From assembly GCA_964570585.1 (NCBI GenBank), contig CAZMYR010000003.1, positions 22,749 through 86,748 on the forward strand: a stretch of 64,000 nucleotides of DNA. The letters run 5' to 3'. Source of the stretch: an uncultured Planctomycetia bacterium. GTDB lineage: Bacteria; Omnitrophota; Gorgyraeia; JABMRG01; JAFGKX01. A program made the position numbers and the translations under genes. The notes beneath the pieces were generated by a model. It saw nothing but the letters and a program-made list of their open reading frames with translations, was not told the DNA's origin and did no database searches. Below, one piece after another: positions 34,812 through 62,067 of this stretch (its first letter is position 1; every line of letters starts with the position of its first letter).

Positions 34812-34832
34812 CTTTGCTTTCCCAAACGGTGC
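34812..34832 (-). promoter_or_regulatory. family C leader motif upstream of tuf copy 2
   Basis: identical to 18967-18987. Confidence 0.5.
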
Positions 34833-37286: not shown

Positions 37287-37368
37287 GCCCCGTTAGAAAT
37301 TATGTGATATTATAGTGCATTCTACATGCTATATTTTGTTTAGTATATAAAAAAATTTCTAACGGGGC
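37287..37368. repeat. 15-bp perfect inverted repeat GCCCCGTTAGAAATT...AATTTCTAACGGGGC (family I) flanking a 52-nt AT-rich spacer in the divergent recG/rpmB promoter region
   Basis: read directly; near-identical arms (CCCCGTTACAAATT) occur inside both pilin-like genes. Confidence 0.75.
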
Positions 37369-37742: not shown

Positions 37743-37885
37743 AAAAAATCCTAAATCCTAAACTCGAAATCCTAAACAAACCCAAAACTCTAAACCCAAA
37801 TGTTCAAAACAGATTGCATAACAATTATGTTTTGAGTTTTGTATTTTGAGTTTGTTTAGAGTTTAGGGTTTAGTGTTTAGGGTTT
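37743..37885. terminator. long imperfect palindrome built from CCTAAA/TTTAGG repeats; bidirectional terminator between convergent rpmB and otsB, right arm overlaps the otsB 3' end
   Basis: read directly. Confidence 0.5.
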
Positions 37886-38667
37886 ATGTCCGTTAATTTC
37901 TCTAGAAATCCAAACACCTCTTTTGTATCCGTCGCATAATATTCAGCGTTTGAAACTGTATTTTTTCCTCCCACAAAGATTGTAATGCCTTTCTTTTTCA
38001 ATCTCTTAAAAGCGCTTTCATCGGTCTCGTCATCGCCTAGATAAATAGGTAAAATCCTCCTACGCTTATTCTTTTTTCTTTTTAATAAATAATCGACGAG
38101 GCTGCCCTTGTCCCATTTAATTGGAGGGCGCACTTCGATTACTTTCTTACCGTTGGTTATTTTTACTTTTTTACTTTCAATATACGGAGTAAGTGTAGTA
38201 ATAACTGAATGTTTTAGTTTTTTTATTTTTGCTCCTTTTACCATACGGTAATGCACGCTTAAGGTAAGCCCTTTGTCTTCAATAAAGGCGCCAGGAATTT
38301 TTCTGCATGCTGTTTTCAGTTTGGAAAAAAGTGGTGCCAGCCGCGAGTTTTTTTTAAAAAACTTGTGCCTGGCACCACTTTTTCCATTTTCTATCTCCAA
38401 CCCATGATTACCAGCTAAAGCTATGCCTTTTATTTTTATCTTTTGTTTTAATTGCTTAATTGAACGACCGCTTATTATCGCTATAGAGAATTTAGGATTT
38501 TTCATTAATTTAAGCAGGATAGATTTTGATTCTTTCGGTAAATTCGCTAATTCGGGCTTTTTAACAATTGGGGCAAGGGTGCCGTCATAATCCAGGAAAA
38601 GGTATATGTGGGGAGTTCTATTTATTTCTGCAAAGATTTTTCTGGAGTGTCGGAAGAGATACTTCAT
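37870..38667 (-). CDS. otsB: trehalose-6-phosphate phosphatase (HAD family)
   Basis: DYDGTL motif, 265 aa. Confidence 0.8.
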   Translation of the reverse strand: MKYLFRHSRKIFAEINRTPHIYLFLDYDGTLAPIVKKPELANLPKESKSILLKLMKNPKFSIAIISGRSIKQLKQKIKIKGIALAGNHGLEIENGKSGARHKFFKKNSRLAPLFSKLKTACRKIPGAFIEDKGLTLSVHYRMVKGAKIKKLKHSVITTLTPYIESKKVKITNGKKVIEVRPPIKWDKGSLVDYLLKRKKNKRRRILPIYLGDDETDESAFKRLKKKGITIFVGGKNTVSNAEYYATDTKEVFGFLEKLTDINPKH

Positions 38668-40201: not shown

Positions 40202-41292
40202 TTGCCTTCCTTTGCTAAATATAATGTCTGGGTCGGATAAGCAAATTCAATGTCTCGGGCCTCGAATTCTTTCTTCATGGCAAAATTAATCTCTTGCTGA
40301 ATATCCATATATTTATTGTAGTCTCTGCTCATAACATAGTAGACAACTTCAAATACCAGATTGAAATCGCCATAGGAGGCAAAATGGGCACGGTCAAAGG
40401 TGGTATCCTTAACATTTTTTATAACATTTTCGATTATTCCCGGTATAACCTTCAACTTCTCGAGGGGAGTCTGATAGGTAACGCCAAGTTTAAAAACAAC
40501 CCTTCTTTTTCCCATCCTTTTATAGTTGCGCAACCGAGAATTGGTAAGGTCTTTATTAGAAAAGACTAATTGCTCTCCGCCAAGACTGCGTATACGGGTG
40601 GTCTTAATTCCAATATGCTCAATGGTTCCTAAATACTCTCCTATTATGATAAAATCTCCGATTTCAAACGGACGGTCAAACATTATAGCAAAATAACTAA
40701 ATAGATCTCCTAAAATTGCCTGAGCTGCTAAGGCTACTGCTACGCCTCCGATACCTAAACCGGCAACAACAGCTGATATTTTAAATCCTAAGTTGTCTAA
40801 GAAAAAGATAATAGCCAATCCCCATACAATTAGCTTTATTATTCTTAAAATCCCTTTTAAACTTCGCTCTAAACCTACATCTTTGCCTCTCTTTGTCCGG
40901 TAAATATCAAATCCGTAACCTATAAGAACTGTGGCTAAACGCGCTGCAAATAAGGTCAGAATAGCCATTCCTGTAATATCGATAATTTTTTTCAACAGAG
41001 GATCTAAATTTAGGATATTCACACTCAAATAGAAAGCGCCAAAATAGGCCAAAGGAAGAAGTATCTTTTGAATAAGCCCAACCAGAAAATCATCCAACGT
41101 TGTAGCAGTCTTTTCTGCCCATTTTTTTAAGCGCCTTAATATAAAGCACTGGAATATCTTAATAATGGCGAAACCTGCTAAAAGTATAAGAACGCATATT
41201 AAATAATCGGCAATACGATTTCCAAGAAACGCCTTTTCTATAATCTCCTGAAGCATTTTTATTCTCCTTTTACCGTAGGAGCCCCCCGACAA
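40198..41292 (-). CDS. mscS: small-conductance mechanosensitive channel (MscS family)
   Basis: 364 aa, TM helices plus conserved MscS beta domain; 4-nt overlap with otsA. Confidence 0.8.
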   Translation of the reverse strand: MSGGSYGKRRIKMLQEIIEKAFLGNRIADYLICVLILLAGFAIIKIFQCFILRRLKKWAEKTATTLDDFLVGLIQKILLPLAYFGAFYLSVNILNLDPLLKKIIDITGMAILTLFAARLATVLIGYGFDIYRTKRGKDVGLERSLKGILRIIKLIVWGLAIIFFLDNLGFKISAVVAGLGIGGVAVALAAQAILGDLFSYFAIMFDRPFEIGDFIIIGEYLGTIEHIGIKTTRIRSLGGEQLVFSNKDLTNSRLRNYKRMGKRRVVFKLGVTYQTPLEKLKVIPGIIENVIKNVKDTTFDRAHFASYGDFNLVFEVVYYVMSRDYNKYMDIQQEINFAMKKEFEARDIEFAYPTQTLYLAKEGK

Positions 41293-43000
41293 CCTTTGGT
41301 GTCGGGACTCCTACGTTAAGCCGTATGTCCTTAAGCTGCAACTGAATAGATTTTACCCCCTTGTATGTATTTAAACTGCAGGTATAAGCCAGATTGATAT
41401 CTTCGTCTGTAATATTAGCGGGGACATTATCTGCCATTCTAAAACCTTTTGCTTCACAAACTTTATCTCCATCAGTAACCCACATCTTTATAGAATCTCT
41501 ACCTATTATCTGTGGTGGTCTTTTAATTTTAAGTTTTTTAGTTGCAAAGACAGGACGAGGGTTTGCTGAACCAAAGGGTGCAAGTTGACTCATCTCTTTA
41601 AAAAATCTATCTGATAATGACTTAAACCCAATCTCCATATCTATCTCTACTGTTGGTATAAGGTCTTCTGCTTTAAGACAACTTTGAGCAATTTCGTTTA
41701 TAAGCCTTCTAAAATCTTCCAAATGACTCTTATGCATTGTTAGGCCTGCTGCATAACGATGCCCGCCAAAATTCTCTAAAAGGTGGCTGCATTTATCAAG
41801 TGCTTCGACAAGATGAAAATTTTTTATCGACCTGCCTGAACCCTTTGCAATCTTACCTTTGGTTGTCATAATCAATGCCGGCCGATGATACCTATCAACA
41901 AGCCTTGATGCAACTATACCTATAACTCCCGAATGCCAGTCTTCATTCTGCAAAACGATAATTTTGTCCTGTTTAAAGTCTATAGTCTGTTCTAACTTAG
42001 CGAGCGCCTGAGTTAAAGTCTGCTGCTCTAATTTCTGCCTGTTGCGGTTTTCTATATCCAGAGTCTCTGCCAATAAATCTGCTTCCTGAGAATTACCTGT
42101 AAGGAGCAGTTGCAAAGCTGTCTCTGCTGAACTTAATCTTCCTGCTGCATTTATGCGCGGCCCGAGAATATAGCCGACATAATGGGAGCTCATTTCCTTG
42201 CCTTTTAATCTTGCTACTGATATAAGGGCCTGCAATCCTTTCTTTTTGCTATTGGTTACTTGCTCAAGGCCGAATTTTGTCAATATTCTATTTTCATCTG
42301 TAAGGGGCACCACATCCGAAATAGTGCCCAAGCATACTAAATCAAGATGTTCATAAATAGAATCTGAATCAACGCCGCAAAGAGCAGATGCCAATTTAAA
42401 AGCTACTCCGACTCCGGCTAAATCTTTATATGGGTACTTGCAGCCTTTTTGTAAGGGGTTTAATATGCTAAATGCATCTGGTAAATCGCCTGAAGGCTGA
42501 TGATGGTCGGTTATAATAACATCTATTCCGGCGCTGTTAAGCTGTTTTGTTTGCTCTTTCGCCGTTATGCCACAATCTACGCTTATAAATAATTTTGTCT
42601 TTCTTATTATAGCAAGTTTAATAGCATTCTCACTTATTCCGAAACCTTCCATAATCCTATCGGGTATATAATGGTTAACCCTTGCCCCCATTTTTTTTAG
42701 CACAAGCTCAAGCAGCGCTGTTGCGCAAATTCCATCTACGTCATAATCGCCATGAATTAATATCTGTTCTTTTCTTTCTATGGCTTTTTTTATACGGGAT
42801 ACAGATTTGCGCATCCCATTCATTAAAAAGGGGTCTTTTAAGTTAAACAGGCTGGGTCTTAAAAATTCATAAGCGCTGCCGGGAGTATCTATGCCTCTGT
42901 TTAACAAAATCTGAGCTGTGATTCCGGATACAGAAAGCTCATCGGATAGAATCTTCTGTCTTTCTAAATCTGTTTTCTTAATAAGCCATTTCTTTATCAT
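41270..43000 (-). CDS. recJ: single-stranded-DNA-specific exonuclease RecJ (start trimmed to MIKKWL; overlaps secDF stop by 4 nt)
   Basis: DHH and DHHA1 motifs. Confidence 0.85.
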   Translation of the reverse strand: MIKKWLIKKTDLERQKILSDELSVSGITAQILLNRGIDTPGSAYEFLRPSLFNLKDPFLMNGMRKSVSRIKKAIERKEQILIHGDYDVDGICATALLELVLKKMGARVNHYIPDRIMEGFGISENAIKLAIIRKTKLFISVDCGITAKEQTKQLNSAGIDVIITDHHQPSGDLPDAFSILNPLQKGCKYPYKDLAGVGVAFKLASALCGVDSDSIYEHLDLVCLGTISDVVPLTDENRILTKFGLEQVTNSKKKGLQALISVARLKGKEMSSHYVGYILGPRINAAGRLSSAETALQLLLTGNSQEADLLAETLDIENRNRQKLEQQTLTQALAKLEQTIDFKQDKIIVLQNEDWHSGVIGIVASRLVDRYHRPALIMTTKGKIAKGSGRSIKNFHLVEALDKCSHLLENFGGHRYAAGLTMHKSHLEDFRRLINEIAQSCLKAEDLIPTVEIDMEIGFKSLSDRFFKEMSQLAPFGSANPRPVFATKKLKIKRPPQIIGRDSIKMWVTDGDKVCEAKGFRMADNVPANITDEDINLAYTCSLNTYKGVKSIQLQLKDIRLNVGVPTPKVVGGLLR

Positions 43001-45207
43001 CTTCTCTTCTTCTTCTGCCAGGCGATTAAAAGCGGGCTGGCGATAAATATGGTTGAGTATATACCAGAGATAAAACCTACTATAAGACAAAATGCAAAAT
43101 TGTGTAATACCTCACCACCAAGAAAAAATAATGCAAATGCAGTAAATAGTGTAGTAAGGGTAGTAAGGACCGTCCTGCCTAAGGTCTGATTTACGCTCAT
43201 ATTTATTAATTCTATAAAGTTTATCTTGCGAAGCAAGCGCATATTTTCTCTTATCCTGTCATAGATAACCACTGTGTCATTTATAGAATAACCGGCAATG
43301 GTCAAAAGTGCCGCAACTATAGTTAAATCAAACTCCTTGCCTGTTATTGCCATTGCCCCTATCGTAACCAATACGTCATGAAATAAAGCTACTACTCCTG
43401 CCAATCCATATTCCCAGTGCTTAAATCTTATGCCAATGTAAATCAGAATGCCGGTCAGACCTAAAAGCAATGCCTTAATTGCATTCTTTCTTAAAAGCCT
43501 GCCTACTGATGGTCCAACCTTCTCCACCCTCATCATTTCAGCCTGGTTGTCTTTAAAATCTTGCTTGAAGGTCTTTTTTATCTTATCATATGTATCGGTG
43601 TATGTCCTTATGAGCACATCGCGATTATCTGCAAATTGCTGTATAGAGGCGCTGGCAAGGTCTACCCTTGCCAAACTATCACGAACCATAGCAATATCAA
43701 CCGGTTTTTGAAACCTGAATTGCTGCAGGGTGCCACCGGTAAAATCCACGCCAAAGTTTTTCTCGCCTCTCATCGTAAAAACAAAAATTCCTACAGCAAT
43801 AACCACAGCCGATAAAATATAACAAATCCTTCTTTTTGCGACAAAATTTATACGAGTGCCGCTTATTAAACTGAGCATGCGGAGCCTGCCAAATTTAGGA
43901 GAGCGACTAAGTACATTAAATATAGTTCTGGTAACAACAAGGGCAGTAAATAAACTGGCCAGAATACCTATGGTAAGTGTCATAGCAAATCCGCGAATAG
44001 GACCTGTCCCGAATTGAAGCAGCATAATAGCTGCTATGATTGTAGTTACATTTGAATCTAAAATTGCGCTGAAGGCCTTAGAATATCCGATTGAAATGGC
44101 GCTCCGGACAGTCTTTCCTGTCTTAAGCTCTTCTCGAATTCTCTCATATATTAAAACATTGGCATCTACTGCCATGCCAATAGTAAGTATCAAACCTGCA
44201 ATGCCCGGCAAAGTTAAAGTAAAGTGAAAATAGCCCATTACCCCGCCTATGATTATGATATTTAATAAAAGGGCGATGTTTGCTATTATCCCTGAAAGCA
44301 TATAATATATGAGCATGAAGACTATGACTAAAATAAAACCTGTCAAAATAGCGCACAGGCCTGCATTTACCGAGTCCCGTCCTAATAACGGACCTACTGT
44401 CCTTTCTTCCTCTATATATACTGGCGCAGGAAGAGCACCGGCGCGCAATACAATTGCTAAATCGTTTGCCTCATCCGGACTAAACCTCCCTTCAATTATC
44501 GCTTCTCCGGAAGGTATCTCTTCCTTTATATTAGGGGCAGATTTTACAACGCCATCAAGCACTATAGCGAGTCGGCGTCCAACATTGTCTCTGGTAACGC
44601 GGGCAAATTTTCTCGCGCCTTCTCTATTGAAAGATAGACCTACTACAGGTTGATTAAATTGGGACTGTTGAAACTTAACTGTAGCGTCTTTTAAATCAGC
44701 TCCGGCAACTTCGGCTTTTTCTTCAAGAAGGATTGGCTGGCCTTTTTCGTCTTCTTTCAATTCATAGCCTTCGGGAACATTGTTTTCCAGGGCGCTCTTT
44801 AATTTCTCAGGGTCTGCTGAAACCAGTTTAAACTCTAAAAGTGCAGTTTGGCCTACCAGCTCAATAGCCCTATCTCTATCCGTTACTCCTGGTAGCTGTA
44901 CTACTATTTCATCCTTGCCCTGTCTTTGTATAGCAACCTCTTTAACCCCAAATTGGTCTATACGATTCCTTATTATCTCTAATGCTACATCCGGCGCATC
45001 CTTTGCCTCTTTCTCAGATAACTTTGCTGTATCAACCTTAAGCACAAGGTACATTCCACCCTGGAGGTCAAGCCCTAAATTTATCCTTCCTTCCCGAATT
45101 ACTTTACCTGCTTTATCTTTTATGGTAAACGGGGGAAATAAACTCCACAGGGATAAAATAATAACAACTAATATAAGCAAAACCTTCCATTTAAGGTTCT
45201 TCTGCAT
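42997..45207 (-). CDS. secDF: fused protein translocase subunits SecD-SecF
   Basis: 736 aa, 12 TM, periplasmic domain. Confidence 0.9.
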   Translation of the reverse strand: MQKNLKWKVLLILVVIILSLWSLFPPFTIKDKAGKVIREGRINLGLDLQGGMYLVLKVDTAKLSEKEAKDAPDVALEIIRNRIDQFGVKEVAIQRQGKDEIVVQLPGVTDRDRAIELVGQTALLEFKLVSADPEKLKSALENNVPEGYELKEDEKGQPILLEEKAEVAGADLKDATVKFQQSQFNQPVVGLSFNREGARKFARVTRDNVGRRLAIVLDGVVKSAPNIKEEIPSGEAIIEGRFSPDEANDLAIVLRAGALPAPVYIEEERTVGPLLGRDSVNAGLCAILTGFILVIVFMLIYYMLSGIIANIALLLNIIIIGGVMGYFHFTLTLPGIAGLILTIGMAVDANVLIYERIREELKTGKTVRSAISIGYSKAFSAILDSNVTTIIAAIMLLQFGTGPIRGFAMTLTIGILASLFTALVVTRTIFNVLSRSPKFGRLRMLSLISGTRINFVAKRRICYILSAVVIAVGIFVFTMRGEKNFGVDFTGGTLQQFRFQKPVDIAMVRDSLARVDLASASIQQFADNRDVLIRTYTDTYDKIKKTFKQDFKDNQAEMMRVEKVGPSVGRLLRKNAIKALLLGLTGILIYIGIRFKHWEYGLAGVVALFHDVLVTIGAMAITGKEFDLTIVAALLTIAGYSINDTVVIYDRIRENMRLLRKINFIELINMSVNQTLGRTVLTTLTTLFTAFALFFLGGEVLHNFAFCLIVGFISGIYSTIFIASPLLIAWQKKKRR

Positions 45208-45229: not shown

Positions 45230-45274
45230 TTGGGACGTCCTGCAGGGGGGGCACCCTGCAGGACGTCCCCAACC
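45230..45274. repeat. palindromic element family B, copy 1 (GGGACGTCCTGCAGGG-N6-CCCTGCAGGACGTCCC)
   Basis: read directly; inverted copy at 51973-52018. Confidence 0.85.
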
Positions 45275-45626: not shown

Positions 45627-45649
45627 AAAAAACTCCTTCCGTTATTGGG

Positions 45650-47900
<2,251 letters not shown>

Positions 47901-47904
<4 letters not shown>

Positions 47905-49064
47905 TCCGTCAACTTAACAACTTCTGCGCCCGGGTAATAGTGCCTGAGTATCTGATAACAATTATAGCCTTTTTTTGCCATGGAAAAGGCTCCCCACTGG
48001 CACATTCCCACACCATGACCCCAACCATATCCTTTAAAATGGGCTTGATTATCTTCAATTGACATACTGAAATTTGTGCTATTTAAGACTTTTGTGCCTA
48101 ATATATTGCGAAACTCTTTTGCGGCCATTTTTATGGTATTGTCTGCTTTAATCCTTAAGCTCCTTACTCTGCCCGATCTATCTCTGGATAGAATCTTTAT
48201 AGATTTTATTTTACCTGTCGGTTCTTTAGCCCTGCTTATTTTATCTTCAATCTCATCTAAAGAAATTGTCTTCGCCCATATAAAATACGGAGAATTTTCG
48301 CAAAAAGGGCAGTTTACGCCTCTGAGCGGTTTTACCCCTGATGAAATCTTCCATAACCTCGATGCTTTTTCAGTTCTGCCTCCGCATGTAGCGTGGAAAA
48401 AGGCCGGCAAAACCCTACCTCTATACATTAGAATCTGGCCTGCAGTTTCATCAACTGCTTTGCTGGTTCTAAATTTCTCTCCAAATACGCCTCTGTATAC
48501 CTGTGAACTTACATCTGCACGAAGATAGTATTCTTTATCAGACCTTTGCTGGGCTTGATAAATAGCAAATGTCCTTGAAGCTATGGCCTGGGCCTTTATA
48601 GCCTCCAGGGGCCATCGGTGAGATATTTCATAGTAAAGAACACCTTTAATATAATTTTCTATATTTAATACATTTATAACTGAAAGCAAGCCTTGTTTTG
48701 TCTTTATTAATTGTAACCTGCCTCTATACAAACACTTCCCTACATATATAGATGGGTCTTTGGCAGGTATAATCTCTATCCCATATATCTTAAAATAATC
48801 CTCTTTGAATGTCCTAAAATGTATTCCATGCTCAAAAGCCCTGACTTTCGCCTGCCACAGAACCTCACCTTCTTTAAGGACTTCCCCGGTCTCGATTGTA
48901 GTTATTTTATACGGCCCTTTTACTGCTAATTCTATCTCTTCTACGTCTTCATCTATTGCTACCCTTATCTTATCAGGCACTGCTACTGATAAACTGTCTA
49001 CCTCTTCTGACAAGCAGAATAATATGGCAAAAATAAAAAGAACGAATATGAAGGATTTTCTCAT
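47901..49064 (-). CDS. SpoIID/LytB-domain protein (amidase enhancer), secreted
   Basis: signal peptide plus SpoIID motif ISHRWPLEAIKAQAIASRTFAIYQ. Confidence 0.7.
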
Positions 49065-49268
49065 TTTCGGGTTAGTAGATATAATACAATTGTTATTGCT
49101 GCACTAATTAAAAGGCAGGTAGCTAAGGGGAGGTAAAAATGGAAATTATCCTTTTTTATATAGATATCGCCAGGCAGTTTACCCAAAAATGGAATCTTAT
49201 CGAAAAACTGCAAAAATATTCCCAGCATTACTAACAATATCCCGAATATAATAAGGGTTTTGCCAATC

Positions 49269-49814
49269 TTAATTTTGAATTTTTAATTTTTTATACCGTT
49301 CCCGCTCACTATATATACATCCGCAATACTTCTGATGATAGAGCCCCATCTGTCTTGATAAATTATGCGACTCTCTAAAACCTGTTCTGAAGTCTTCATA
49401 ATAAAAATTTATTCCATAATTTTTTTCTAAAGAGGTGGCTATATCCTTTATCTTGTCTTGATCCTGATATGGGCTTATCAACAAAGTTGTAGTAAATGCG
49501 TCAAAATTTTCTCTTTTGGCAAACTCTGCGGTTATTTTTAGCCTTAATTGCCAGCATAAGCTGCATCTATCATCCTGTTCATGGAGTGTTATCTTTCTAA
49601 AAAAATCCTCAAATTTATATTCTCTATGGAAAAAAACGGGCAAATTTAACTTCTCCGATACACAAACTACCGATTCCCTCCTTTTATCATACTCTGAAAC
49701 AGGATGTATATTGGGATTATAAAAAAAGCCGAAAACTTTATGGTCTTTTTCACGAAGGGTGTTTATGCAATAAATCGCGCAAGGCCCGCAACATATATGC
49801 AGTAGGATTCGCAT
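49269..49814 (-). CDS. queH: epoxyqueuosine reductase QueH (DUF208)
   Basis: 181 aa, CCGPC plus Cys cluster. Confidence 0.75.
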   Translation of the reverse strand: MRILLHICCGPCAIYCINTLREKDHKVFGFFYNPNIHPVSEYDKRRESVVCVSEKLNLPVFFHREYKFEDFFRKITLHEQDDRCSLCWQLRLKITAEFAKRENFDAFTTTLLISPYQDQDKIKDIATSLEKNYGINFYYEDFRTGFRESHNLSRQMGLYHQKYCGCIYSERERYKKLKIQN

Positions 49815-49868
49815 CGTTTAGCGTTTAGCGGATAGCGTTTAGCCGATGGGAAAACTATTCGCTATACG
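49815..49868. repeat. (CGTTTAGCG)-type tandem array with complementary CGCTAAA array; queH-ruvB spacer
   Basis: read directly. Confidence 0.7.
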
Positions 49869-50906
49869 CTAAAATAGCTCTTTCTGCTTCTCTCTGGTTT
49901 TCTTAAGATGTTGATATGCCAGGTCAGTAATTTTTCTGCCGCGTGGAGTGCGTTTTAAAAAGCCGCTTTTAAGCAAAAATGGCTCCACCACATCAACTAT
50001 TGTATCGGATTCTTCATTTAAAGAAGCGGCCAATGACTCTATGCCTACAGGCCCGCCTTTATAATAATCGATTATGGCAAAAAGAACCTTTCTATCTATA
50101 GTATCCAGGCCAAACGAATCGATGCCCTGGGAATTCAAGGCCTCATCCGCTATTTCTTTAGTAATGGCACCGGATTTTTTTACCTGGGAGAAGTCTCTTA
50201 CCCGGCGAAGCAGGCGATTGGCAACACGGGGAGTGCCTCTTGAGCGCCTGGCTATTTCCATCGCTCCTTCTTTGTCAATCTTAATATTTAAAATTTTCAC
50301 AGAACGATTTATAATCTTCACCAGCTCTTCCGGCTGGTAAAAATCTAAATGAAAAAACATGCCAAACCTGCCCCGTAAAGGGGCGGAAAGTAATCCGGAA
50401 CGGGTAGTAGCTCCTATAAGGGTGAAATGCTTTAGATTAAATTTTATTGTTTTTGCATACGGGCCTTTATCTATAACAAAATCTATCTGGAAATTTTCCA
50501 TAGCCGGATAAAGAAATTCCTCTACAACTTTAGATAAACGGTGCACCTCATCTATAAACAAGACATCCCCTTTTTCTAAATTAGTAAGTATGCCTATTAA
50601 ATCCCCTGCTCTTTCTATTGCCGGGCCTGATGTAGCGGTTATTTTAGAACCCATCTCGTGGGCAATGATATGAGCTAAACTAGTCTTACCTAATCCGGGA
50701 GGCCCTGCAAAAAGCATGTGCTCAAGAGGTTCTCGTCTTTCCTTTGCAGCCTGCAAGGATATAAGCAGATTTTCTACAGTCTTTTTCTGCCCTACAAAGT
50801 CGCTTATTTTAGTAGGACGCAAAGAAAGATTTAATATCTTATCCTCATCAGTCTCCTGCTGAAGGATTATCTTCTCTCTTTTCGGCTTTGGGGTTTTTTC
50901 CTTCAT
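49869..50906 (-). CDS. ruvB: Holliday junction branch migration ATPase RuvB
   Basis: Walker A GPPGLGKT, 345 aa. Confidence 0.95.
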
Positions 50907-51013
50907 ACTAGCAACTATTCCTTACAAAAGTTTATTGTCGAGACCTGAAACTTATTAGACCCTACAACAGTCTGACCCCTTGCTGCTTATATTTTTCCAC
51001 TGACACATTCACA

Positions 51014-51757
51014 TCAGGACTTATGGCGTAGTATTTCAAGTTCTTTTCTTAACGGTGCCCAGTATTCTATATCCTTTTGTCGCTCTCGTGCTTCCTCTTC
51101 ACGAAGTGCTGAGCCAAGTTTTTCTGTATCTCTATTAATTGCCAGGGATAAAAGGGGCCTGCGTGCAAGACATTCCCTTGCAATTGCAGGATATCGCCTT
51201 GTCAATTCAATTAAAATAGATGTATCCCGACATTCGCGAAGCCACCATTTTATGCGCTCATCTGAGGGTTTATCTTTGTTTGATAAATAATCATTCTCTA
51301 CAAGGCGTTTTAACATAAGCCAATCTTTATCGCGCTGAGTTTTTTTGCTTTGAACAAGGTCTCGCAGACCGATGACGTCGATAGAGCTGCCGTTTTTTAA
51401 TACCACGGTTTTTTTACGTTTCCATAATTTATCAAATGGTTCCGAGCCGCGCAATTTAGATATTATGTCAATACGCAATTTTTCTACGCCTTTTGCATTA
51501 CACCGAAAATGACAGGCATGTCCACGTTCTAAATACTCTTGCTTAAGCGGCGGCACATAGATACGAGTTGCATTCAAGGCGCTTAAAGCAGCTTGCAGAG
51601 ATTTAAGGTTTTTCGGTGTGCATAATAAGACAAAATCTGAATCACGGCTAAATTCAGCAGCACCGTAAATAATACAGGCCTGTCCGCCGATTAGCAAACA
51701 TTTAACTTTATGCTTCTTTAAAGTAGAAAGGACTTTGAGGATCGGGTTCGGGGTCAA
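51014..51757 (-). CDS. predicted nucleotidyltransferase (Pol-beta superfamily core GG...S.D.D, plus about 150-aa helical C-terminal domain); alternative start codon
   Basis: LLIGGQACIIYGAAEFSRDSDFVL motif; no in-frame ATG near the N-terminus. Confidence 0.5.
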   Translation of the reverse strand: MTPNPILKVLSTLKKHKVKCLLIGGQACIIYGAAEFSRDSDFVLLCTPKNLKSLQAALSALNATRIYVPPLKQEYLERGHACHFRCNAKGVEKLRIDIISKLRGSEPFDKLWKRKKTVVLKNGSSIDVIGLRDLVQSKKTQRDKDWLMLKRLVENDYLSNKDKPSDERIKWWLRECRDTSILIELTRRYPAIARECLARRPLLSLAINRDTEKLGSALREEEARERQKDIEYWAPLRKELEILRHKS

Positions 51758-51893
51758 GACTCCCTCCTAATGCAATATAAAGTTTCCATAACTTAGTTGT
51801 TTCGGAAAAACGTTCAGCGGGCGTAAGCCTTAGCCATTCAGCGTTTTCATCTACAAATTTCTGTTTTGTGTATTTAATCTTTTGTTTCTTCAT
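51708..51893 (-). CDS. small hypothetical protein (61 aa) overlapping the NTase gene by 50 nt
   Basis: ATG-initiated ORF; no recognisable domain. Confidence 0.35.
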   Translation of the reverse strand: MKKQKIKYTKQKFVDENAEWLRLTPAERFSETTKLWKLYIALGGSLDPEPDPQSPFYFKEA

Positions 51894-51966
51894 TGAGGGT
51901 AAAAGGGGACGGTTCTATTTTTTACATTTTTCCTGGTGTCCCCCTCAGGGGAAAAAATTCCTTCTT

Positions 51967-52086
51967 CTAGCATGGTTGGGGACGTCCTGCAGGGAGGCAA
52001 CCCTGCAGGACGTCCCCACTACTTACATCAGTCTCCTGCTGAAGGATTATCTTCTCTCTTTTCGGCTTTGGGGTTTTGTTTTTCAT
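51967..52086 (-). pseudogene. duplicated 5' fragment of ruvB (first 17 codons, 52 bp identical to 50846-50897) fused in frame to codons from palindrome B; 39-aa ORF
   Basis: read directly; [20 protein letters not shown] versus Ruv[21 protein letters not shown]. Confidence 0.6.
51973..52018. repeat. palindromic element family B, copy 2 (inverted relative to copy 1)
   Basis: read directly. Confidence 0.85.
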
Positions 52087-52098
52087 ATTTTTTAATGG

Positions 52099-52659
52099 TT
52101 ACTCTAAATAAAGCAAATATGCCTCCCACTTTCCATTATAACTGTCAATAACGTAGGTATCTGTATTAGCAGGAGTAACAGTATCTTCTATGACATAGTG
52201 TCCTTGATTTTTTGGGTCAGTATCATTACTTCGAAATAATATTTGGTACTGGCTTGTTGTTCCATCGTAGAGAACCCTATACTGGCATATTGTTGTATCG
52301 CTTGAAGTTGGTGGTATCTCTATGTTTAATTCATCTTCAGCATTAACATAATCACTGATAGCTTCTGTCCAATCCCAGGGAAAATAACCTCCCTTTTTAT
52401 AATTATAATACCTCTCTGCTGCAAGAATAACCTGTACGGTATTGGGTACCTCCTTCAATTTCGCCCTGGTACGAAATGTTTCAAACTGAGGATACAATAT
52501 TGTAGCAAGAATAGCGATAACAACTGTGACCATTAATAATTCTACTAAGGTAAACCCCGTTACAAATTTACGTTTGCTATTCTTCTTTTGTATGCTTTGG
52601 TTAATTTGTAACGGGGTAAATGAGTTCCTTTTCTTTGGCTTTATATTTTTTTCTTTCAT
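52099..52659 (-). CDS. type IV pilin / pseudopilin-like protein (prepilin-type N-terminal cleavage/methylation domain), 35-aa leader
   Basis: KRKFVTG-FTLVELLMV class III signal; hydrophobic N-terminal helix. Confidence 0.75.
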   Translation of the reverse strand: MKEKNIKPKKRNSFTPLQINQSIQKKNSKRKFVTGFTLVELLMVTVVIAILATILYPQFETFRTRAKLKEVPNTVQVILAAERYYNYKKGGYFPWDWTEAISDYVNAEDELNIEIPPTSSDTTICQYRVLYDGTTSQYQILFRSNDTDPKNQGHYVIEDTVTPANTDTYVIDSYNGKWEAYLLYLE

Positions 52660-52671
52660 ATTCTTTAATGG

Positions 52672-53217
52672 TTATTCTAAATAACCTAGATATTTATCAT
52701 AGGGACTTTCGATAGTATAGTTACGTGTTTGTATAACGCACTCACCTACTTTTTTTTCGTCTTCTGCAGTATTGTCAGCTTTCCGAAAATGTATTGCCCA
52801 GGTACCGGGAGTAGTAGTATTATCCACCCAATATTCGCATACATCTCTAGGAAGAGTTATATTTAATTCATGCTCAACTTCCGCATTGCCATGAGCGCTA
52901 CTAGTATAAACAAAATTATCAGCATCGGCCGCAGTCCAGTCAAAATAAGCACCAATTTTAAAATTATAATACTTCTCTCCTGCAAGAATTAGCTGTATGG
53001 TATTCGGTACTTCCTTCAATTCTGTCCTTATACGAAATGTTTGAAATCGGGGATACATTATTGTAGCAAGAACACCGATAATAACTACGACTATTAATAA
53101 TTCTATTAAGGTAAGCCCCGTTACAAATTTACGTTTGCTATACTTGAAAATATAATTTTTAAATATATTTTGTATGCTTTGGTTAATTTGTAACGGGGTA
53201 AAGGAGTTCCTTTTCAT
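52672..53217 (-). CDS. type IV pilin / pseudopilin-like protein, paralog of the gene at 52099-52659
   Basis: KRKFVTG-LTLIELLIV signal; shared leader KRNSFTPLQINQSIQ. Confidence 0.75.
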   Translation of the reverse strand: MKRNSFTPLQINQSIQNIFKNYIFKYSKRKFVTGLTLIELLIVVVIIGVLATIMYPRFQTFRIRTELKEVPNTIQLILAGEKYYNFKIGAYFDWTAADADNFVYTSSAHGNAEVEHELNITLPRDVCEYWVDNTTTPGTWAIHFRKADNTAEDEKKVGECVIQTRNYTIESPYDKYLGYLE

Positions 53218-53849
53218 CTTATTCCCCTTTTTGTCTTTTTCTGGTTATAAACCTCGTTCAATAGTTGTTCTGTGGTCTCTATATCAGGATTTTGTTCAAG
53301 AGCACTCTTTACCATCCGGTCTGCCTCGGTCTTTTTATATTGAAGCTGGCTTAAAACTTCTAATGCCTCTTCTTCTATATCTTTCCTTAAAGCTATCTCA
53401 TCGGGTTTAAATCTATCTTTTATAAGACCGAACCTGCCAACTTTACCCTGAAGCTTTGCAATTATCTGCTTTGCCCTTTGCTCTCCTATGCCGGGTAGGC
53501 ATCTGAGGTGTGAGGTGTCTGCCGATTCTATAGCTTGAATAATCATTGATATCGGTTCACTCAATGCCTTAACAGCAGCCTTAGGCCCTACGCCAGAAAC
53601 GGTTATAAATTTTTCGAAGAATTCCTTTTCTATCTGATTTGTAAATCCGATCAACACCGGAGTGCTCCTTGCCGGGTCATTTGCAAGATAATGGAAAGTT
53701 ATCAGTTCTATCTCATTGCCAATCCTGGCATCTTTTAAATCGTTCAATACCGTAAGCGGAACCAGAATCTCATATCCTATGCTATTTATTTCGATAAGTA
53801 AACTGGCTTCATTCTTCCTGATTAGCTTGCCTTTGATTCTGGATATCAT
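53214..53849 (-). CDS. ruvA: Holliday junction DNA helicase RuvA
   Basis: 211 aa, OB domain plus HhH motifs; 4-nt overlap with the downstream pilin-like gene. Confidence 0.9.
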   Translation of the reverse strand: MISRIKGKLIRKNEASLLIEINSIGYEILVPLTVLNDLKDARIGNEIELITFHYLANDPARSTPVLIGFTNQIEKEFFEKFITVSGVGPKAAVKALSEPISMIIQAIESADTSHLRCLPGIGEQRAKQIIAKLQGKVGRFGLIKDRFKPDEIALRKDIEEEALEVLSQLQYKKTEADRMVKSALEQNPDIETTEQLLNEVYNQKKTKRGIR

Positions 53850-53859
53850 AAGTATAGGA

Positions 53860-54000
53860 ACGTTTCCAAAATCAAAGAGGCAAATGTAGGAACGTTTCCA
53901 AAATCAAAGAGGCAAATGTCCCCATAAAGGGGACACTTGCCCCTTAGATTTCGGAAACGTTCCTGGGGACACTTGCCCCTTAGATTTCGGAAACGTTCCT
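53860..54000. repeat. composite direct and inverted repeats (AGGAACGTTTCCAAAATCAAAGAGGCAAATGT x2; GGGGACACTTGCCCCTTAGATTTCGGAAACGTTCCT x2) in the ruvC-ruvA spacer
   Basis: read directly. Confidence 0.8.
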
Positions 54001-54470
54001 TTCTGTTTATATATATGTGTCAAACACAAAGCCAGAGCATCAGTTATATCTGCCGGTCCCTTAGAAGGTTTTAGATTCAAAAGGCCTTCTACTGTACGCT
54101 GAACCTGCTGCTTCGAGGCATTGCCATTGCCAGTTACAGCTTGCTTTACTGTCTTAGCCGGATAATTAACCAGCTCTAAATTTTCTAAACCGCAAGCTAA
54201 AACAATAATCCCTCTGGCATGACCCATTAGAATTGCTGTCATCGGATGCCTGTAATGAGAATAGAGTTTTTCTAGAATGCAAACTTTGGGTCTGGTCTCT
54301 TTGATTAAATTTAAAACTTGGGAATAGATGATATTAAGACGGATGCGTAGATTTTGTTTACCGGATGTTTTTATTGTGCCTGCTTCTACAATTTTTATAT
54401 TCCCTCTATTTTGCACAACTACGCCATATCCGGTTACATTCAGGCCTGGATCTATTCCTAGAATTCGCAT
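53904..54470 (-). CDS. ruvC: crossover junction endodeoxyribonuclease RuvC (start trimmed to MRILGIDPG)
   Basis: conserved RuvC N-terminus; track extension translates the tandem repeat. Confidence 0.9.
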   Translation of the reverse strand: MRILGIDPGLNVTGYGVVVQNRGNIKIVEAGTIKTSGKQNLRIRLNIIYSQVLNLIKETRPKVCILEKLYSHYRHPMTAILMGHARGIIVLACGLENLELVNYPAKTVKQAVTGNGNASKQQVQRTVEGLLNLKPSKGPADITDALALCLTHIYKQKGTFPKSKGQVSPGTFPKSKGQVSPLWGHLPL

Positions 54471-54475
54471 ATCTT

Positions 54476-54538
54476 TCGTCGTGCGTCGTGCGTTCTTCGT
54501 CGTACGTCGTACGTCGTACGTCGTAATACGCAATACAT
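54476..54538. repeat. (CGTCGTRCG)n tandem array then TAATACGCAATAC; inverted partner of 22037-22078
   Basis: read directly. Confidence 0.8.
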
Positions 54539-54542
54539 ACCT

Positions 54543-55292
54543 TTATCCGCTTGCCTCCAATATTATGCTATCAGGTATATCAAAGTTCGAATAGACGTTT
54601 TGGACATCATCGTGGTCTTCTAAGCCTTCTATTAATGACAAAACGCTTCTTGCAGGAGCACCTTCTACCCTAACGGTGCTGGATGGAATCATGGTTATCT
54701 CATCAGATTCTATTTTTATATTAGACTTTTCAAATGCAGTTTTTACCTTTTCAAAATCAGCCACGCTGGTAGTTATCTCATACATATCGCCTTCAGTCTT
54801 CATATCCTCTGCGCCAGATTCTAAGGCTGCACTCATAAGGATATCCTCATCTACACCCTGTTTTTTTACAAGAATAAACCCTTTCTTTTTAAATATCCAC
54901 TGAACACTGCCCTGCCCGGCCATACTGCCGCCTTTTTTCGAGAAAATGGTTCTTATTTCTGCGGTTGAGCGATTTTTATTATCGGTGAGTACCTCAACTA
55001 ATATTGCTACACCTTTTGACCCATACCCCTCATAAATAACTTCTTCGTAAGTTATGCCTGGTAGCTCTCCTGTGCCCTTTTTAATGGCCCTTTCAATATT
55101 ATCTGATGACATATTGCAAGACTTGGCTTTATTCACAACTAATCTTAAGGATGGATTAATATTAACATCGCCGCCTCCCTGCCTGGCTGCGACTGTTATC
55201 TCTTTAGCCAATTTTGAAAATAACTTACCTCGTTTAGCATCTACTGTTGCTTTTTTATGTTTAATTCCTGCCCATTTTGAATGGCCTGACAT
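54543..55292 (-). CDS. yebC: YebC/PmpR family DNA-binding transcriptional regulator
   Basis: 249 aa, conserved. Confidence 0.9.
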   Translation of the reverse strand: MSGHSKWAGIKHKKATVDAKRGKLFSKLAKEITVAARQGGGDVNINPSLRLVVNKAKSCNMSSDNIERAIKKGTGELPGITYEEVIYEGYGSKGVAILVEVLTDNKNRSTAEIRTIFSKKGGSMAGQGSVQWIFKKKGFILVKKQGVDEDILMSAALESGAEDMKTEGDMYEITTSVADFEKVKTAFEKSNIKIESDEITMIPSSTVRVEGAPARSVLSLIEGLEDHDDVQNVYSNFDIPDSIILEASG

Positions 55293-55293
55293 A

Positions 55294-57345
55294 TCACGCT
55301 CCTGAAGCTTCCTCTTTCACTGCCTTCGCCTTCGCTATTATCTGTTGAGCTACCTTATCCGGCACCTGCTCATAACGAGAAAATTTCATTGTGTAGGAAC
55401 CTTTGCCTGCTGTCATAGAACGTAACTCTGTCGCATATTTAAGCATCTCAGCCAAAGGTACCTGTGCTTTTACTATCTGATTTGCACCTTTGGGTTCCAT
55501 TCCCATAATTCTTCCTCTTCGAGAATTTAAATCGCCGGTTATGTTTCCCATAGCATCTTCAGGCACTACTACCTCTACATCCATAATCGGCTCTAATAAC
55601 ACAGGGTTGGCTTGTTTTAATCCATTTTTCATCGCGGTACTTGCTGCAATCTTAAATGCCATTTCGGAGGAATCCACTGTATGAAAGGACCCATCAAAAA
55701 GGGTAACCTTAACACCCGCCACCGGCGCACCGATTAATATCCCTGCTTGCATAGTTGCTTTTACGCCTTTCTCAACGCCGGGAATATACCCTCTTGGTAT
55801 AGCCCCACCGGCAATCTTATCCACAAACTCATAATTTTCGCCTCGAGGAAGCGGTTCAAGCTTAAGATAAACTTCACCATACTGGCCATGGCCTCCTGTC
55901 TGCTTCTTATGTTTATAACTGACCTCGACCTTCTTCCTTATAGTTTCTTTATAGGCCACCTTGGGCGTGCCAATCTCAACCTCAACTTTAAAATTCCTCT
56001 TCAGCCTTTCAATCATAATCTTAAGATGTAAGTCCCCTAATCCCGATACTATCAATTCTTTTGTCTGTTGATTCCTTCCATACTTAAATGTTGGGTCCTC
56101 ACTGCCCAATTTTGAGAGAGCGGTCATTATCCTTTCTTCATCTTGTCTGGTCTTTGGCTCAAGTGATAATGATATAGCAGGCTCCGGCATTTTAATTGTA
56201 TCAAATTCAAGCTGCCTTGATTCGTTGCATATAGTATCACCTGTGGTTGTCTCCTTTAATTTTGCGACTGCAGCTATATCGCCGGCCCGGACCTTGTCTA
56301 TCCCTTCCTGCTCTTTTCCCTTAAGCAGAAATATCTGGCCTATTTTTTCCCTGGCAGATTTATTTACATTATAAAATCCTGTATTGGATGGCAGGCTTCC
56401 GGAAAACACTCTAAAGATGGTAAGTTGTCCGACGTAAGGATCGATGATTGTCTTGAAAACTTGTGCAGCAAAAGGTTCATCAGCGGAAACTTTATATTTT
56501 ATAGGATTGGTTCCATCGGGCGAGGTAGCCTGTATTAGGGCTGCATCTTGTGGCGAAGGAGCAAATTTTATAATACCATTTATAAGCTCATCTACGCCAA
56601 TTCCTTTAGTAGCCGAACCGCAAAATACAGGATGTGTATTGCCTATACTTACTGCCTTTTTAAGGCCATTTATTATTTCATCCTGAGAGAGCTCTTCTCC
56701 CACAAGATATTTTTCGATTAATGCATCATCTGTTTCAGCTATTGCCTCTATAAGCTGCTCTCTATATTTTAGGGCCTTATCTTTATCATCGCCTGAAATA
56801 CTCTCGACGGTAGCCTTATTCAATAAATCAACCACCTTCTCAAAAGAGGTTTCTTTACCTATCGGATATGTAATAGGGACGCAATTTTTTCCAAATTCTT
56901 TCTGCACTGCCTCAATCGTTTTCTCAAAACTTGAATGTTCCTTATCTAACTTATTTATAAATAAAAATGAAGGCTTTTTAGCTTCTTTTAACATATCCCA
57001 CATCCGGGACGTGCCTATCTCTACTCCGTTTACCCCGCATACTAAACACAGCCCACAGCCAGCAGCACGAAGAGATGAAAAAACTCCACCTATAAAATCT
57101 GCATAACCCGGGGTATCTAAAAGATTTATTCTTTTTGAGTCTTTTTCAATGCTAAGCACCTTTGGATCAATCGTAATCTTTCTTTCAATTTCATCCGGGT
57201 TATAATCGCACATACTGGTACCTTCATCAACGCTACCACGTCTTGTGTTTACCTTTGCAGCAAATAGTATAGAATCTATTAAAGATGTCTTTCCGGCACT
57301 CGAATGAGATAAAAATACAATATTTCTTATATCCTTAACATCCAT
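55294..57345 (-). CDS. elongation factor G paralog (EF-G2-like translational GTPase)
   Basis: 683 aa, G-domain motifs, divergent from fusA at 18993. Confidence 0.8.
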   Translation of the reverse strand: MDVKDIRNIVFLSHSSAGKTSLIDSILFAAKVNTRRGSVDEGTSMCDYNPDEIERKITIDPKVLSIEKDSKRINLLDTPGYADFIGGVFSSLRAAGCGLCLVCGVNGVEIGTSRMWDMLKEAKKPSFLFINKLDKEHSSFEKTIEAVQKEFGKNCVPITYPIGKETSFEKVVDLLNKATVESISGDDKDKALKYREQLIEAIAETDDALIEKYLVGEELSQDEIINGLKKAVSIGNTHPVFCGSATKGIGVDELINGIIKFAPSPQDAALIQATSPDGTNPIKYKVSADEPFAAQVFKTIIDPYVGQLTIFRVFSGSLPSNTGFYNVNKSAREKIGQIFLLKGKEQEGIDKVRAGDIAAVAKLKETTTGDTICNESRQLEFDTIKMPEPAISLSLEPKTRQDEERIMTALSKLGSEDPTFKYGRNQQTKELIVSGLGDLHLKIMIERLKRNFKVEVEIGTPKVAYKETIRKKVEVSYKHKKQTGGHGQYGEVYLKLEPLPRGENYEFVDKIAGGAIPRGYIPGVEKGVKATMQAGILIGAPVAGVKVTLFDGSFHTVDSSEMAFKIAASTAMKNGLKQANPVLLEPIMDVEVVVPEDAMGNITGDLNSRRGRIMGMEPKGANQIVKAQVPLAEMLKYATELRSMTAGKGSYTMKFSRYEQVPDKVAQQIIAKAKAVKEEASGA

Positions 57346-60388: not shown

Positions 60389-60480
60389 AGTTCTAAAAGT
60401 TCTAAAGGTTCTAAAGGTTCTAAAAGTTCTAAAAGTTCTGAACTTTTGGAACTTTTTAACTTTTTAAACTTTTTTAACTG
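60389..60480. repeat. paired complementary tandem arrays (GTTCTAAARG)n / (AACTTTTT)n upstream of the IMPDH-family gene
   Basis: same family as 46776-46876. Confidence 0.9.
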
Positions 60481-60579
60481 TTTAACCTACAGATTATATC
60501 CACATGCAAAATTATGTCAATACAAATTGCTTACACAGATAATCGCAGATTTAGAACAGATGATAGCAGATATCCCTGA

Positions 60580-62067
60580 TTATCTGTGCATTTTGAAATT
60601 CCATACAACAAAATTGCTTTCTATATCTTCAACATGCAAGCGGTAAATATCATACATAGCTTTTTCTAAAACTATACCTGAGTTTAATTTCTCCAGCAAT
60701 TTCTTAAATTTGTATTTTCCGTATCTGTCTATGAGATATTTTAAAAATAGTTTTGACAAGAGATAACCCGATCTTATTTTTTTATAACCGGCTGACGAAA
60801 ATAAACTATCTATCCGATTTAATTTAAAAGGTTCTTCTTTTTTAAAAATCTCATTCAATAAATTTTTATCCTGCCGGTTTAAACTTCGCTCCGGTTCTGC
60901 TAGCTGTGCAAATCCTTCATGTAACCAAACAGGTATATTTTTAGGATATAATATATGCAATACTGCATGCCCATATTCATGGTATATGACTCTTCTTGGA
61001 CCTTGCTGCTCTCCTAATACATCTCCTACCCTTAAGCGAACTTTACCATCATATAAGCCTAAGGTCCAATCTAACTTCTGGGTCGCCTGTCTAAATTGTT
61101 CTGCGGTGTAAATAATTACTGTAACCTTTTTATCGGTAAAAAAGCCAAAATCACTCTTCACCTTGCGGCGGGCATCTTCCAACATATCTATTATATCCCA
61201 TACTAAATCCGGGTCCCTTTCGCCTTCAAACCTGATATCGAAATGGGCACGGGCGCGAGTCTTAAAATCCTCCTCAATCTCAAGCTCCCTGGTTGCTTTG
61301 GCAAGTGTTTCTTTAAGGCCGGAGATGGTAGAATCTAAACTTAATGCCTTATTCCAATACTCAACAGCTTTTTTAAGTTCATTCTGCTGATAATAAATAT
61401 TGCCTAAGAATACATATGCAGCAGGTTTGCTAGAATCATAATCTATGCAATCTCTGGCTAAATTTAATGCTTCCTGTAAGCGCCCTATATTAAAACTTAT
61501 CTTGGCCTCTTGAAGGGTTGTATTATATATATTGTCCTTAAAAGTAATATTTTCCGGATCGAATTTCAGCGCTTCTTTAAAATTGCTTAAGGCAAGGTCA
61601 TATCTGCCTTTTTCAAAAAGAGATAATGCATAATTGTTGTAATAAATGGCAATTTGTTTAGGATAGGCAGAACCGGAGGGGTCTTTATCATATGCCCTTT
61701 TTTCATATCTTATGGCATCTAACCATAATCTATCTTTCGCCAATTGCCCCGCTAAATAATGGCAGGCAGTGCTTAAATTTTTGTTTATAATCTGGTTATC
61801 CGGCTCTAGGTCGCTGGCTGATTCAAATGCAATAACGGCATTTTCATAATCGCCGGCTTCCATATATCTTAAGCCCTGCTGGTTTACCCCGTTAGAAGTT
61901 TCTTCACTGCCTTCAAAATATGAACTTCTAACGGGGTTTAATTCAGAAACCTCGTCGGCACTGGCAGCAGTTATAAGACCGGCTAATATAAAAAATAAGA
62001 CAATTATTGTAAACAAAAAAGGCCCCGAATTTTCGGGGCCTTTTTTCTGAAGGGATTTATATCCCAT
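60580..62067 (-). CDS. membrane-anchored TPR-repeat protein with C-terminal HExxH...E zinc-metallopeptidase-like domain
   Basis: N-terminal TM, TPR motifs, HEYGHAVLH...HEGFAQLAE. Confidence 0.6.
   Translation of the reverse strand: MGYKSLQKKGPENSGPFLFTIIVLFFILAGLITAASADEVSELNPVRSSYFEGSEETSNGVNQQGLRYMEAGDYENAVIAFESASDLEPDNQIINKNLSTACHYLAGQLAKDRLWLDAIRYEKRAYDKDPSGSAYPKQIAIYYNNYALSLFEKGRYDLALSNFKEALKFDPENITFKDNIYNTTLQEAKISFNIGRLQEALNLARDCIDYDSSKPAAYVFLGNIYYQQNELKKAVEYWNKALSLDSTISGLKETLAKATRELEIEEDFKTRARAHFDIRFEGERDPDLVWDIIDMLEDARRKVKSDFGFFTDKKVTVIIYTAEQFRQATQKLDWTLGLYDGKVRLRVGDVLGEQQGPRRVIYHEYGHAVLHILYPKNIPVWLHEGFAQLAEPERSLNRQDKNLLNEIFKKEEPFKLNRIDSLFSSAGYKKIRSGYLLSKLFLKYLIDRYGKYKFKKLLEKLNSGIVLEKAMYDIYRLHVEDIESNFVVWNFKMHR

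Follow-up and report, generated by a model that had tools for sequence, protein, structure and literature searches.

In an uncultured Planctomycetia bacterium (placed in Omnitrophota in GTDB) the recombination genes ruvA and ruvB are separated by 2.3 kb. The region was analyzed within a stretch of 64,000 nucleotides (nt) of contig CAZMYR010000003.1 (positions 22,749 to 86,748), referred to here as the window; loci from other contigs are designated by L numbers. The gap is probably the sum of separate events, namely a native pilin-like gene, its tandem duplication and the insertion of a two-gene module, and not one cassette. The module consists of a small gene (orf61) and a gene for a nucleotidyltransferase (NTase) of 247 amino acids (aa). 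The 1.18-kb segment which carries it lies 62 nt inside the original ruvB, and the first 62 nt of ruvB are found on both of its sides. On the minus strand the order of features is yebC, ruvC, ruvA, pilin-like gene 2, pilin-like gene 1, a 39-aa ruvB stub, a palindrome, orf61, the NTase gene and ruvB. What is new is a widespread, uncharacterised toxin-antitoxin-like NTase pair whose insertions repeatedly have long, imperfect host-gene duplications at their flanks; the pilins are not new.

An earlier note on this DNA, made from the sequence alone, had described a 52-bp identity between 50846-50897 and 52026-52077. The identity was confirmed as exact for 52 nt, and the repeat as a whole is 62 nt long at 95% identity. 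A 46-nt core of it has exactly two occurrences in the window, where 0 would be expected from shuffled sequences. The duplication had been taken to flank the whole 2.3-kb interval, but just 1.18 kb lie between its copies (palindrome, orf61 and NTase gene), and both pilin genes are outside it. The three mismatches between the copies cluster in codons 2-3 and the following 52 nt are identical. There the stub reads AAA AAC, the codons of the L001 ruvB allele; the working ruvB reads AAG GAA, which is near the AAA GAA of L081, L167 and a fossil ruvB start on pilin-like gene 1. Judged from these alleles, the mosaic fits random mutation less well than the boundary of a crossover or conversion.

The left copy now lies behind the old junction as a dead 39-aa stub; the right one follows new upstream DNA and gives back a full-length ruvB. 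The product of the latter has all three RuvB domains (PF05496, E 1.6e-71; PF17864, E 6e-33; PF05491, E 1.7e-25) and is 97% identical to the RuvB of L001 over 345 aa. The stub ORF (open reading frame) had no Pfam match and no identical product on record, and is probably a by-product. Empty sites with a single ruvB start were found in L001, L002 and L167.

Flanking repeats at other insertions of the module were assessed by comparing 400 nt to the left of the module with 400 nt to its right in 50 distinct loci, with the 99th percentile of 298 permuted flank pairs as the threshold. A direct repeat above this threshold was detected in 13 loci, compared with 1 of 50 in the inverted-orientation control and 0 of 53 offset intervals of the same size on the same contigs. 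Exact repeats of at least 14 nt were present in 10 loci, versus one in the inverted control. Some of the flank repeats are low-complexity intergenic sequences (L143, L084) or palindromic elements (L081), and in at least seven loci 33-130 nt of an adjacent gene are duplicated. The duplicated portions were identified as the middle of a small helix-turn-helix (HTH) gene in L155 (130 nt), the 3' end of a gene with a putative PurA-like C-terminus in L086 (112 nt), the 3' end, including the stop codon, of a putative alanine-racemase-like gene in L094 (77 nt; both of these assignments are our own reading), the 3' end of an HTH gene in L130 (65 nt), a promoter and start codon in the related loci L104 and L117, in which the duplication is conserved (33 nt), a 123-nt terminal overlap in L163, and the 62 nt of ruvB in the window. 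The spacing from repeat to repeat is 0.95-1.24 kb throughout, the repeat sequence differs from locus to locus, and in most of the duplicated loci the target gene keeps one full-length copy. Differences between the two copies in four loci comprised 17 synonymous and 9 non-synonymous changes (P = 0.004-0.02 against decay of one copy). Because of this synonymous excess, the fragment copies look like alleles which evolved as working genes, and recombination between diverged alleles is suggested as the source of the copy differences.

The main rival to integration through homology is insertion in situ with a long target-site duplication, in which a staggered break or template switch in ruvB was filled in over 62 nt on both sides, the other repeats of 33-130 nt arose likewise, and the copies acquired their differences later. 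Such events would explain why flanking target duplications recur at many unrelated sites, and why the window repeat is perfect over 52 nt, as expected of a young duplication. The synonymous excess between copies speaks against it, as do the three clustered mismatches in the window, which match the allele types of other genomes. Variable filler (1-210 nt) between the repeats and the ORFs and the truncated orf61 in L163 again resemble the products of illegitimate events, but a four-fold variation in repeat length is unlike any transposase. The module had neither conserved ends nor terminal inverted repeats that could be detected, which also argues against this rival, though weakly as the closest copies at different sites are just 88% identical; in the closest module pairs nucleotide similarity ends within approximately 5 nt of the orf61 start and 8 nt of the NTase stop. 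The module was not assignable to the insertion sequences or transposons, since it contains no transposase domain and its duplications of 33-130 nt are not of fixed length. Insertion in situ is regarded as unlikely. Nothing relevant to target duplications around toxin-antitoxin genes was found in the literature searched.

Under integration through homology, which is the reading preferred here, the duplication would be a recombination scar and the module would travel among related genomes with a piece of the neighbour gene. Homology to that gene could be used by a single crossover of a circular form or, alternatively, on one side only, the other end being joined illegitimately within the homologous stretch. 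Both routes would duplicate the shared stretch and leave the target gene whole. In homology-facilitated illegitimate recombination and in Campbell-type single-crossover integration a short homologous anchor suffices, and the join or the crossover of the circle duplicates the stretch. The module repeats discussed above are all at least 33 nt long, within the range where RecA-type recombination becomes possible. These pathways are generic and are not known to be the habitual route of any one gene family. The sole hint of a circular intermediate came from contig L163 (1-1256), the first 123 nt of which equal the last 123 nt, so that it closes to a unit of 1,133 bp. Besides the NTase gene and part of a convergent gene, this contig includes no more of orf61 than its final 16 codons. 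It may be a circle or a tandem copy, and among 31 short module contigs it was the sole candidate for a circular form. The small palindromic repeats next to the stub, within the leaders of the pilins and at the 3' end of ruvC would have been added later.

The arrangement also resembles that of integrative elements such as phages and genomic islands. When phages and islands integrate into gene ends, direct repeats that restore the target gene are a typical result. Here, too, direct repeats of target-gene sequence lie on both sides of the insert, the interrupted gene is kept intact by the incoming copy, and the two copies are slightly different, as would follow if one derived from the donor. The window could hold the remnant of a site-specific element which carried a replacement ruvB start and lost its integrase, the two ruvB 5' copies being its attL and attR identity blocks; a working ruvB start and upstream region did arrive with the insert. 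Just two ORFs lie between the repeats, however, neither of them recombinase-like, and neither an integrase nor a single conserved att core was identified. The module differs further from integrative elements in the small size of the insert (approximately 1.1 kb), in its many targets (5' ends, 3' ends and one mid-gene site) and in its repeats of 33-130 nt. The 0.95-1.24-kb spacing recurs at different targets with different repeats, which is not expected of a site-specific enzyme, and there were no matches in viral contigs. A remnant of this kind is very unlikely.

The earlier note had regarded the two pilin-like genes as unusual cargo of a single cassette inserted by recombination into the ruvAB operon. 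Recombination is indeed indicated by the duplication scar of the orf61-NTase module; the pilins do not belong to the cassette. A search with RuvA yielded 80 Omnitrophota loci, 77 of them with both ruvA and ruvB. As had been assumed, the two genes normally adjoin: in 75 of the 77 they are separated by -35 to 243 nt, and only L001 (410 nt) and L002 (494 nt) have a larger gap. Exactly one pilin-like gene is present in the gap in L001 (RuvA 89% and RuvB 97% identical) and in L002 (RuvA 76%), and both lack the NTase gene and the ruvB duplication. In L003 (RuvA 73%) a canonical prepilin, MMRRKKIATG|FTLIELL (MMRRKKIATGFTLIELL), begins at the ruvA stop, after which the contig ends. The short contig L167, which comes from another study, shows a long-leader pilin with ruvB immediately behind it. 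With a pilin in this position in the three closest genomes and in L167, the synteny comparison recommended in the earlier note has given, for the pilins, the result which that note itself had named as a refutation. The pilins are not cargo, and these gene orders mark a pilin-like gene after ruvA as native to a small Omnitrophota clade. Pilin-like gene 2 is the positional counterpart of the single pilin gene of the relatives. A single 2.3-kb cassette comprising two pilins, a small ORF and the NTase gene would account for all four genes lying between ruvA and ruvB and for the reuse of the junction. It conflicts with the pilins found at this position without the NTase module, with the occurrence of the module in more than 80 other loci without an adjoining pilin (the sister strain excepted), and with a duplication that brackets the module alone, and is thus extremely improbable.

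In L167 (1-965) no ruvA was found within 194 nt upstream of the pilin, so the ruvA-pilin link may be broken there. The L001 pilin (8636-8660) has no ATG, GTG or TTG before its FTVTELL motif (...ATA AAA GCT TTT ACT...); its start codon may be a rare one, or the gene may be a pseudogene.

Both window pilins pass the prepilin cut-offs of PF07963 (25.5 bits for pilin 1 and 26.0 for pilin 2; cut-off 21.2) and TIGR02532 (24.7 and 24.0 bits, respectively; cut-off 16.3). The Gly -1 and Glu +5 of the cleavage site are present in VTG|FTLVELL (pilin 1) and VTG|LTLIELL (pilin 2), residue +1 of the latter being Leu instead of Phe. With the N-terminal methylation motif followed by a hydrophobic helix, the genes resemble those for type IV pilins and pseudopilins of the PilA, GspG and ComGC class. 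They differ from this class in their unusually long leaders (33-35 aa), which hold an inverted repeat, in C-terminal domains which diverge fast (40-49% between paralogues and orthologues), and in their location within the ruvAB operon. The lack of pilus machinery nearby had been considered unusual. None was found among the ten flanking window ORFs screened, but type IVa pili are common in Omnitrophota (PMC10066038), so that an orphan pilin gene away from the pilus machinery is unremarkable.

The two pilins share 49% aa identity, and the first approximately 300 nt of their genes are 82-85% identical, with a period of 561-582 nt. No product identical to pilin 1 is on record. The junction TAACCATTAAARAATATGAAA follows both genes (52674-52654 and 52101-52081), as was noticed earlier, and the ruvB-like start codons of pilin 1 were also borne out by alignment: its start (ATGAAAGAAAAAAATATAAAGCCAAA, ATGAAAGAAAAAAATATAAAGCCAAAGAAAAGG) aligns with ruvB starts, best with those of L167 and L081, up to GAAAAG, a motif also found at the start of pilin 2 (ATGAAAAGGAAC). 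Based on these sequences, the second copy can be attributed to a separate tandem duplication. Its mechanism would be unequal recombination at the shared GAAAAG (codons 7-9 of ruvB and 1-3 of the pilin), in which pilin body, stop codon, junction and ruvB start were copied and pilin 1 acquired a ruvB-derived N-terminus. The start of pilin 1 is identical in L081, hence the tandem duplication is older than the split of the two strains. In L081 a palindromic element related to that at the ruvC end of the window is located inside the pilin 1 leader (85-159); the ORF stays open and has a 221-aa product. The possibility that the inverted repeat of the pilin leaders is an in-frame insertion flanked by TTTACC was considered and dropped as unproven, the corresponding right-arm region of L003 (KIATG|FTLIE) being native leader.

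Homologs of the window NTase numbered 2,784 and were found in Omnitrophota and the candidate phyla radiation (CPR) at about 65-84% identity and in varied contexts; one of these loci adjoins an MNT-HEPN pair and a Y1 transposase. A homolog of orf61 lies immediately upstream of the NTase gene, with an overlap of approximately 47 nt, in 83 of 84 loci, and the orf61 family alignment has a mean column identity of 70%. The predicted fold of the NTase is closest to TM1012, LnuA and MenT1/3/4 and agrees with the Pol-beta type which had been proposed for the 247-aa protein. The motif hG[GS]x9-13Dh[DE]h (motif I/II) is present, a long helical extension forms the C-terminus (residues ~146-246), and there is a conserved block, KKTQRDKDW, which may or may not correspond to the DUF1814-specific C-terminal motifs III and IV. 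The window NTase has no identical product on record. Searches of NCBIfam revealed nothing for orf61 or the NTase, and no PADLOC model of an anti-phage defence system matched orf61, the NTase or a pilin. Viral contigs contained no relative of the NTase, so that a phage origin is without support.

MenA1 is a 68-aa antitoxin of an NTase toxin (PMC10435456). By analogy with MenA1-MenT1 (Rv0078B-Rv0078A), orf61 and the NTase may be a toxin-antitoxin-like selfish pair in which the small protein would neutralise the NTase, and the NTase probably modifies RNA. In common with the MenAT and AbiE systems, the module is a unit of two genes, which encode a very short upstream protein (61 aa here) and a Pol-beta-type NTase of roughly 200-290 aa, the best structural matches of which include MenT1, MenT3 and MenT4 (PMC10435456, PMC7450476), and its distribution is patchy and crosses phyla. 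It differs from these systems in the overlap of its ORFs and in the C-terminal extension of the NTase, and its fold is fitted equally well by TM1012 and LnuA.

Several observations weigh against the account given here. With regard to the toxin-antitoxin likeness, Pfam searches of the window NTase and 22 homologs gave no match to PF08843 (DUF1814/AbiEii) and only sub-threshold ones to NTP_transf_5, DUF6036 and DUF2204. Small-molecule NTases (LnuA, ANT(2'')) score equal to the MenT toxins, and orf61 has no similarity to MenA1 or any solved chain. Sequence profile searches of the PDB with the NTase and orf61 returned only chance-level matches, and the MenT proteins were not found with the NTase profile. 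With regard to integration, 37 of the 50 module loci are without a flanking repeat, and the synonymous-excess test comprises 26 differences in four loci. For the 52 identical nt of the window repeat, the alleles of donor and recipient must have been almost the same, or gene conversion must have followed, and the recombination model leaves the first arrival of the module at each new target unexplained. The sister strain L081 (95-98% identical), which also has the module and the same new upstream region of ruvB, has no stub; its module lies between two 114-nt copies of a longer version (100-114 nt) of the palindrome which borders the stub in the window. Either L081 has therefore lost the stub, or the stub is a secondary product of the window lineage.

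Finally, the link between pilin 1 and the stub is attested by the window assembly alone, as might be expected if stub and duplication were artefacts of strain variants mis-joined at repeats during metagenome assembly. Three short-read contigs from this strain, each 100% identical (L165, L166 and L085), break exactly at the repeat borders, 52629-52632 and 52082, and the region is consequently hard to assemble. One of these contigs, L085, which starts 5 nt into the stub, nevertheless joins the stub-specific variant AAAACAAAACC to palindrome, module and ruvB. Junctions need real shared k-mers in order to assemble, and similar duplications exist in many unrelated assemblies and are conserved between the related loci L104 and L117. 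An artefact is thus highly unlikely.

The coordinates of the features are collected in Table 1. The overlap of the pilin 2 start with the ruvA stop (ATGA), the 39-aa fusion ORF, the 61-aa ORF and the 247-aa ORF had all been correctly placed before.

Table 1. Genes, duplicated segments and repeats in the ruvCAB region, with examples of short-period tandem repeats elsewhere in the window.
Feature	Position	Strand	Remarks
ruvC	53904-54533	minus	RuvC confirmed by Pfam
ruvA (211 aa)	53214-53849	minus	Pfam RuvA_N and HHH_5; 89% identity to L001 RuvA
Pilin-like gene 2 (181 aa)	52672-53217	minus	Prepilin N-terminal methylation domain after a 33-aa leader
17-nt inverted repeat	53116-53199		Within pilin 2 leader coding region
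Junction copy 1, TAACCATTAAAGAATATGAAA	52654-52674	minus	Pilin 2 stop to pilin 1 start; direct reading and alignment
Pilin-like gene 1 (186 aa)	52099-52659	minus	Tandem paralogue of pilin 2; first ~9 codons ruvB-derived
18-nt inverted repeat	52554-52617		Within pilin 1 leader coding region
Junction copy 2, TAACCATTAAAAAATATGAAA	52081-52101	minus	Pilin 1 stop to ruvB stub start; direct reading and alignment
Left copy of duplicated ruvB 5' end (start codon and 20 codons)	52026-52087	minus	Original ruvB start; still behind the pilin junction
Stub ORF (39 aa)	51967-52086	minus	20 ruvB codons continuing into the palindrome
Perfect palindrome (18-nt arms, 6-nt loop)	51977-52018	none	Copy of a dispersed repeat
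orf61	51708-51893	minus	Small partner gene of the NTase module (candidate antitoxin)
Nucleotidyltransferase-fold protein (247 aa)	51014-51757	minus	Candidate toxin
New ruvB upstream region (106 nt)	50908-51013	minus	Arrived with the module; common to L081
Right copy of duplicated ruvB 5' end	50846-50907	minus	Present working ruvB start
ruvB (345 aa), intact	49869-50906	minus	Pfam RuvB_N, AAA_lid_4 and RuvB_C
Tandem repeats of 7-9-nt period (examples)	4809-4898, 5236-5285, 17332-17377, 22035-22076, 37746-37886
Tandem repeats of 7-9-nt period (examples, continued)	45640-45675, 46776-46876, 49815-49847, 54477-54525, 60389-60486

Upstream of ruvB a weak promoter-like site, TCGACA-16-AATAGT, was located at 50941-50914; such sites are no more frequent there than in shuffled sequences. 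Counts in the promoter and terminator scan as a whole were not above those of shuffles, and no terminator-like site was detected between ruvA and ruvB on the coding strand. An Rfam scan of 49000-55500 gave just sub-threshold chance matches, on the palindromes of ruvC and ruvA.

The palindrome GGGGACGTCCTGCAGGG...CCCTGCAGGACGTCCCC has two copies in the window, that at the stub and another at 45231-45270, in the intergenic spacer just upstream of a 736-aa ORF (42997-45207). A hairpin family, CCCCGTTAnAAnTT, is represented upstream of recG and in the 5' coding part of a tetratricopeptide repeat (TPR)/peptidase gene (37287-37368 and 61886-61937) as well as in both pilin leaders (52554-52617 and 53116-53199), and is tolerated in frame. 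The 3' end of ruvC and the ruvC-ruvA spacer (53855-54000) contain a 32-nt unit twice (53855-53919) and a 36-nt unit twice (53929-54000), the two sets being mutually inverted. This palindromic repeat lengthens the RuvC ORF by approximately 35 aa (GTFPKSKGQVSP twice) relative to the RuvC of L001. The elements are similar to REP (repetitive extragenic palindromic) and MITE-like (miniature inverted-repeat transposable element) repeats in being short GC-rich palindromes with several copies between genes and at gene ends. They differ in that several of the window copies are in frame inside coding regions (pilin leaders, ruvC 3' end, TPR protein) and in that the window yielded no transposase associated with them. 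In many intergenic spacers, short tandem repeats with a period of 7-9 nt adjoin gene starts or stops, and repeats of the same kind flank the module in L143 and L084.

The genes recG, recJ and ruvCAB (35159-37276, 41270-43090 and 49869-54533) are located on the same strand within 20 kb and form a local cluster of recombination genes. Two ORFs of equal length (414 aa, TTG start) at 17736-18980 and 33581-34825, approximately 16 kb apart, are probably duplicated tuf genes; the large ORFs around them were taken, by size alone, as a ribosomal-protein/rpoBC block.

An essential-looking repair operon has thus absorbed three kinds of change and ruvB was kept. The 247-aa NTase represents a large family without a Pfam model, whose conservation across phyla is high. 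If the flank signature reflects movement of the module, it would offer a testable route of recombinase-free spread and a simple marker of recent insertions in metagenomes. A more speculative proposal, which we put forward as a doubtful possibility, is that orf61 and the NTase are a selfish element without a recombinase, which would use a host-gene handle of 30-130 nt and host homologous recombination to enter the same gene of relatives, possibly via a circle of approximately 1.1 kb as L163 suggests, the handle being duplicated each time so that the target survives. In a bolder version the NTase would itself aid joining, for example by extending DNA ends. If true, spread of this kind, based on a handle and without a recombinase, would be a previously undescribed movement of toxin-antitoxin-like genes, the signature of which would be visible in thousands of loci.

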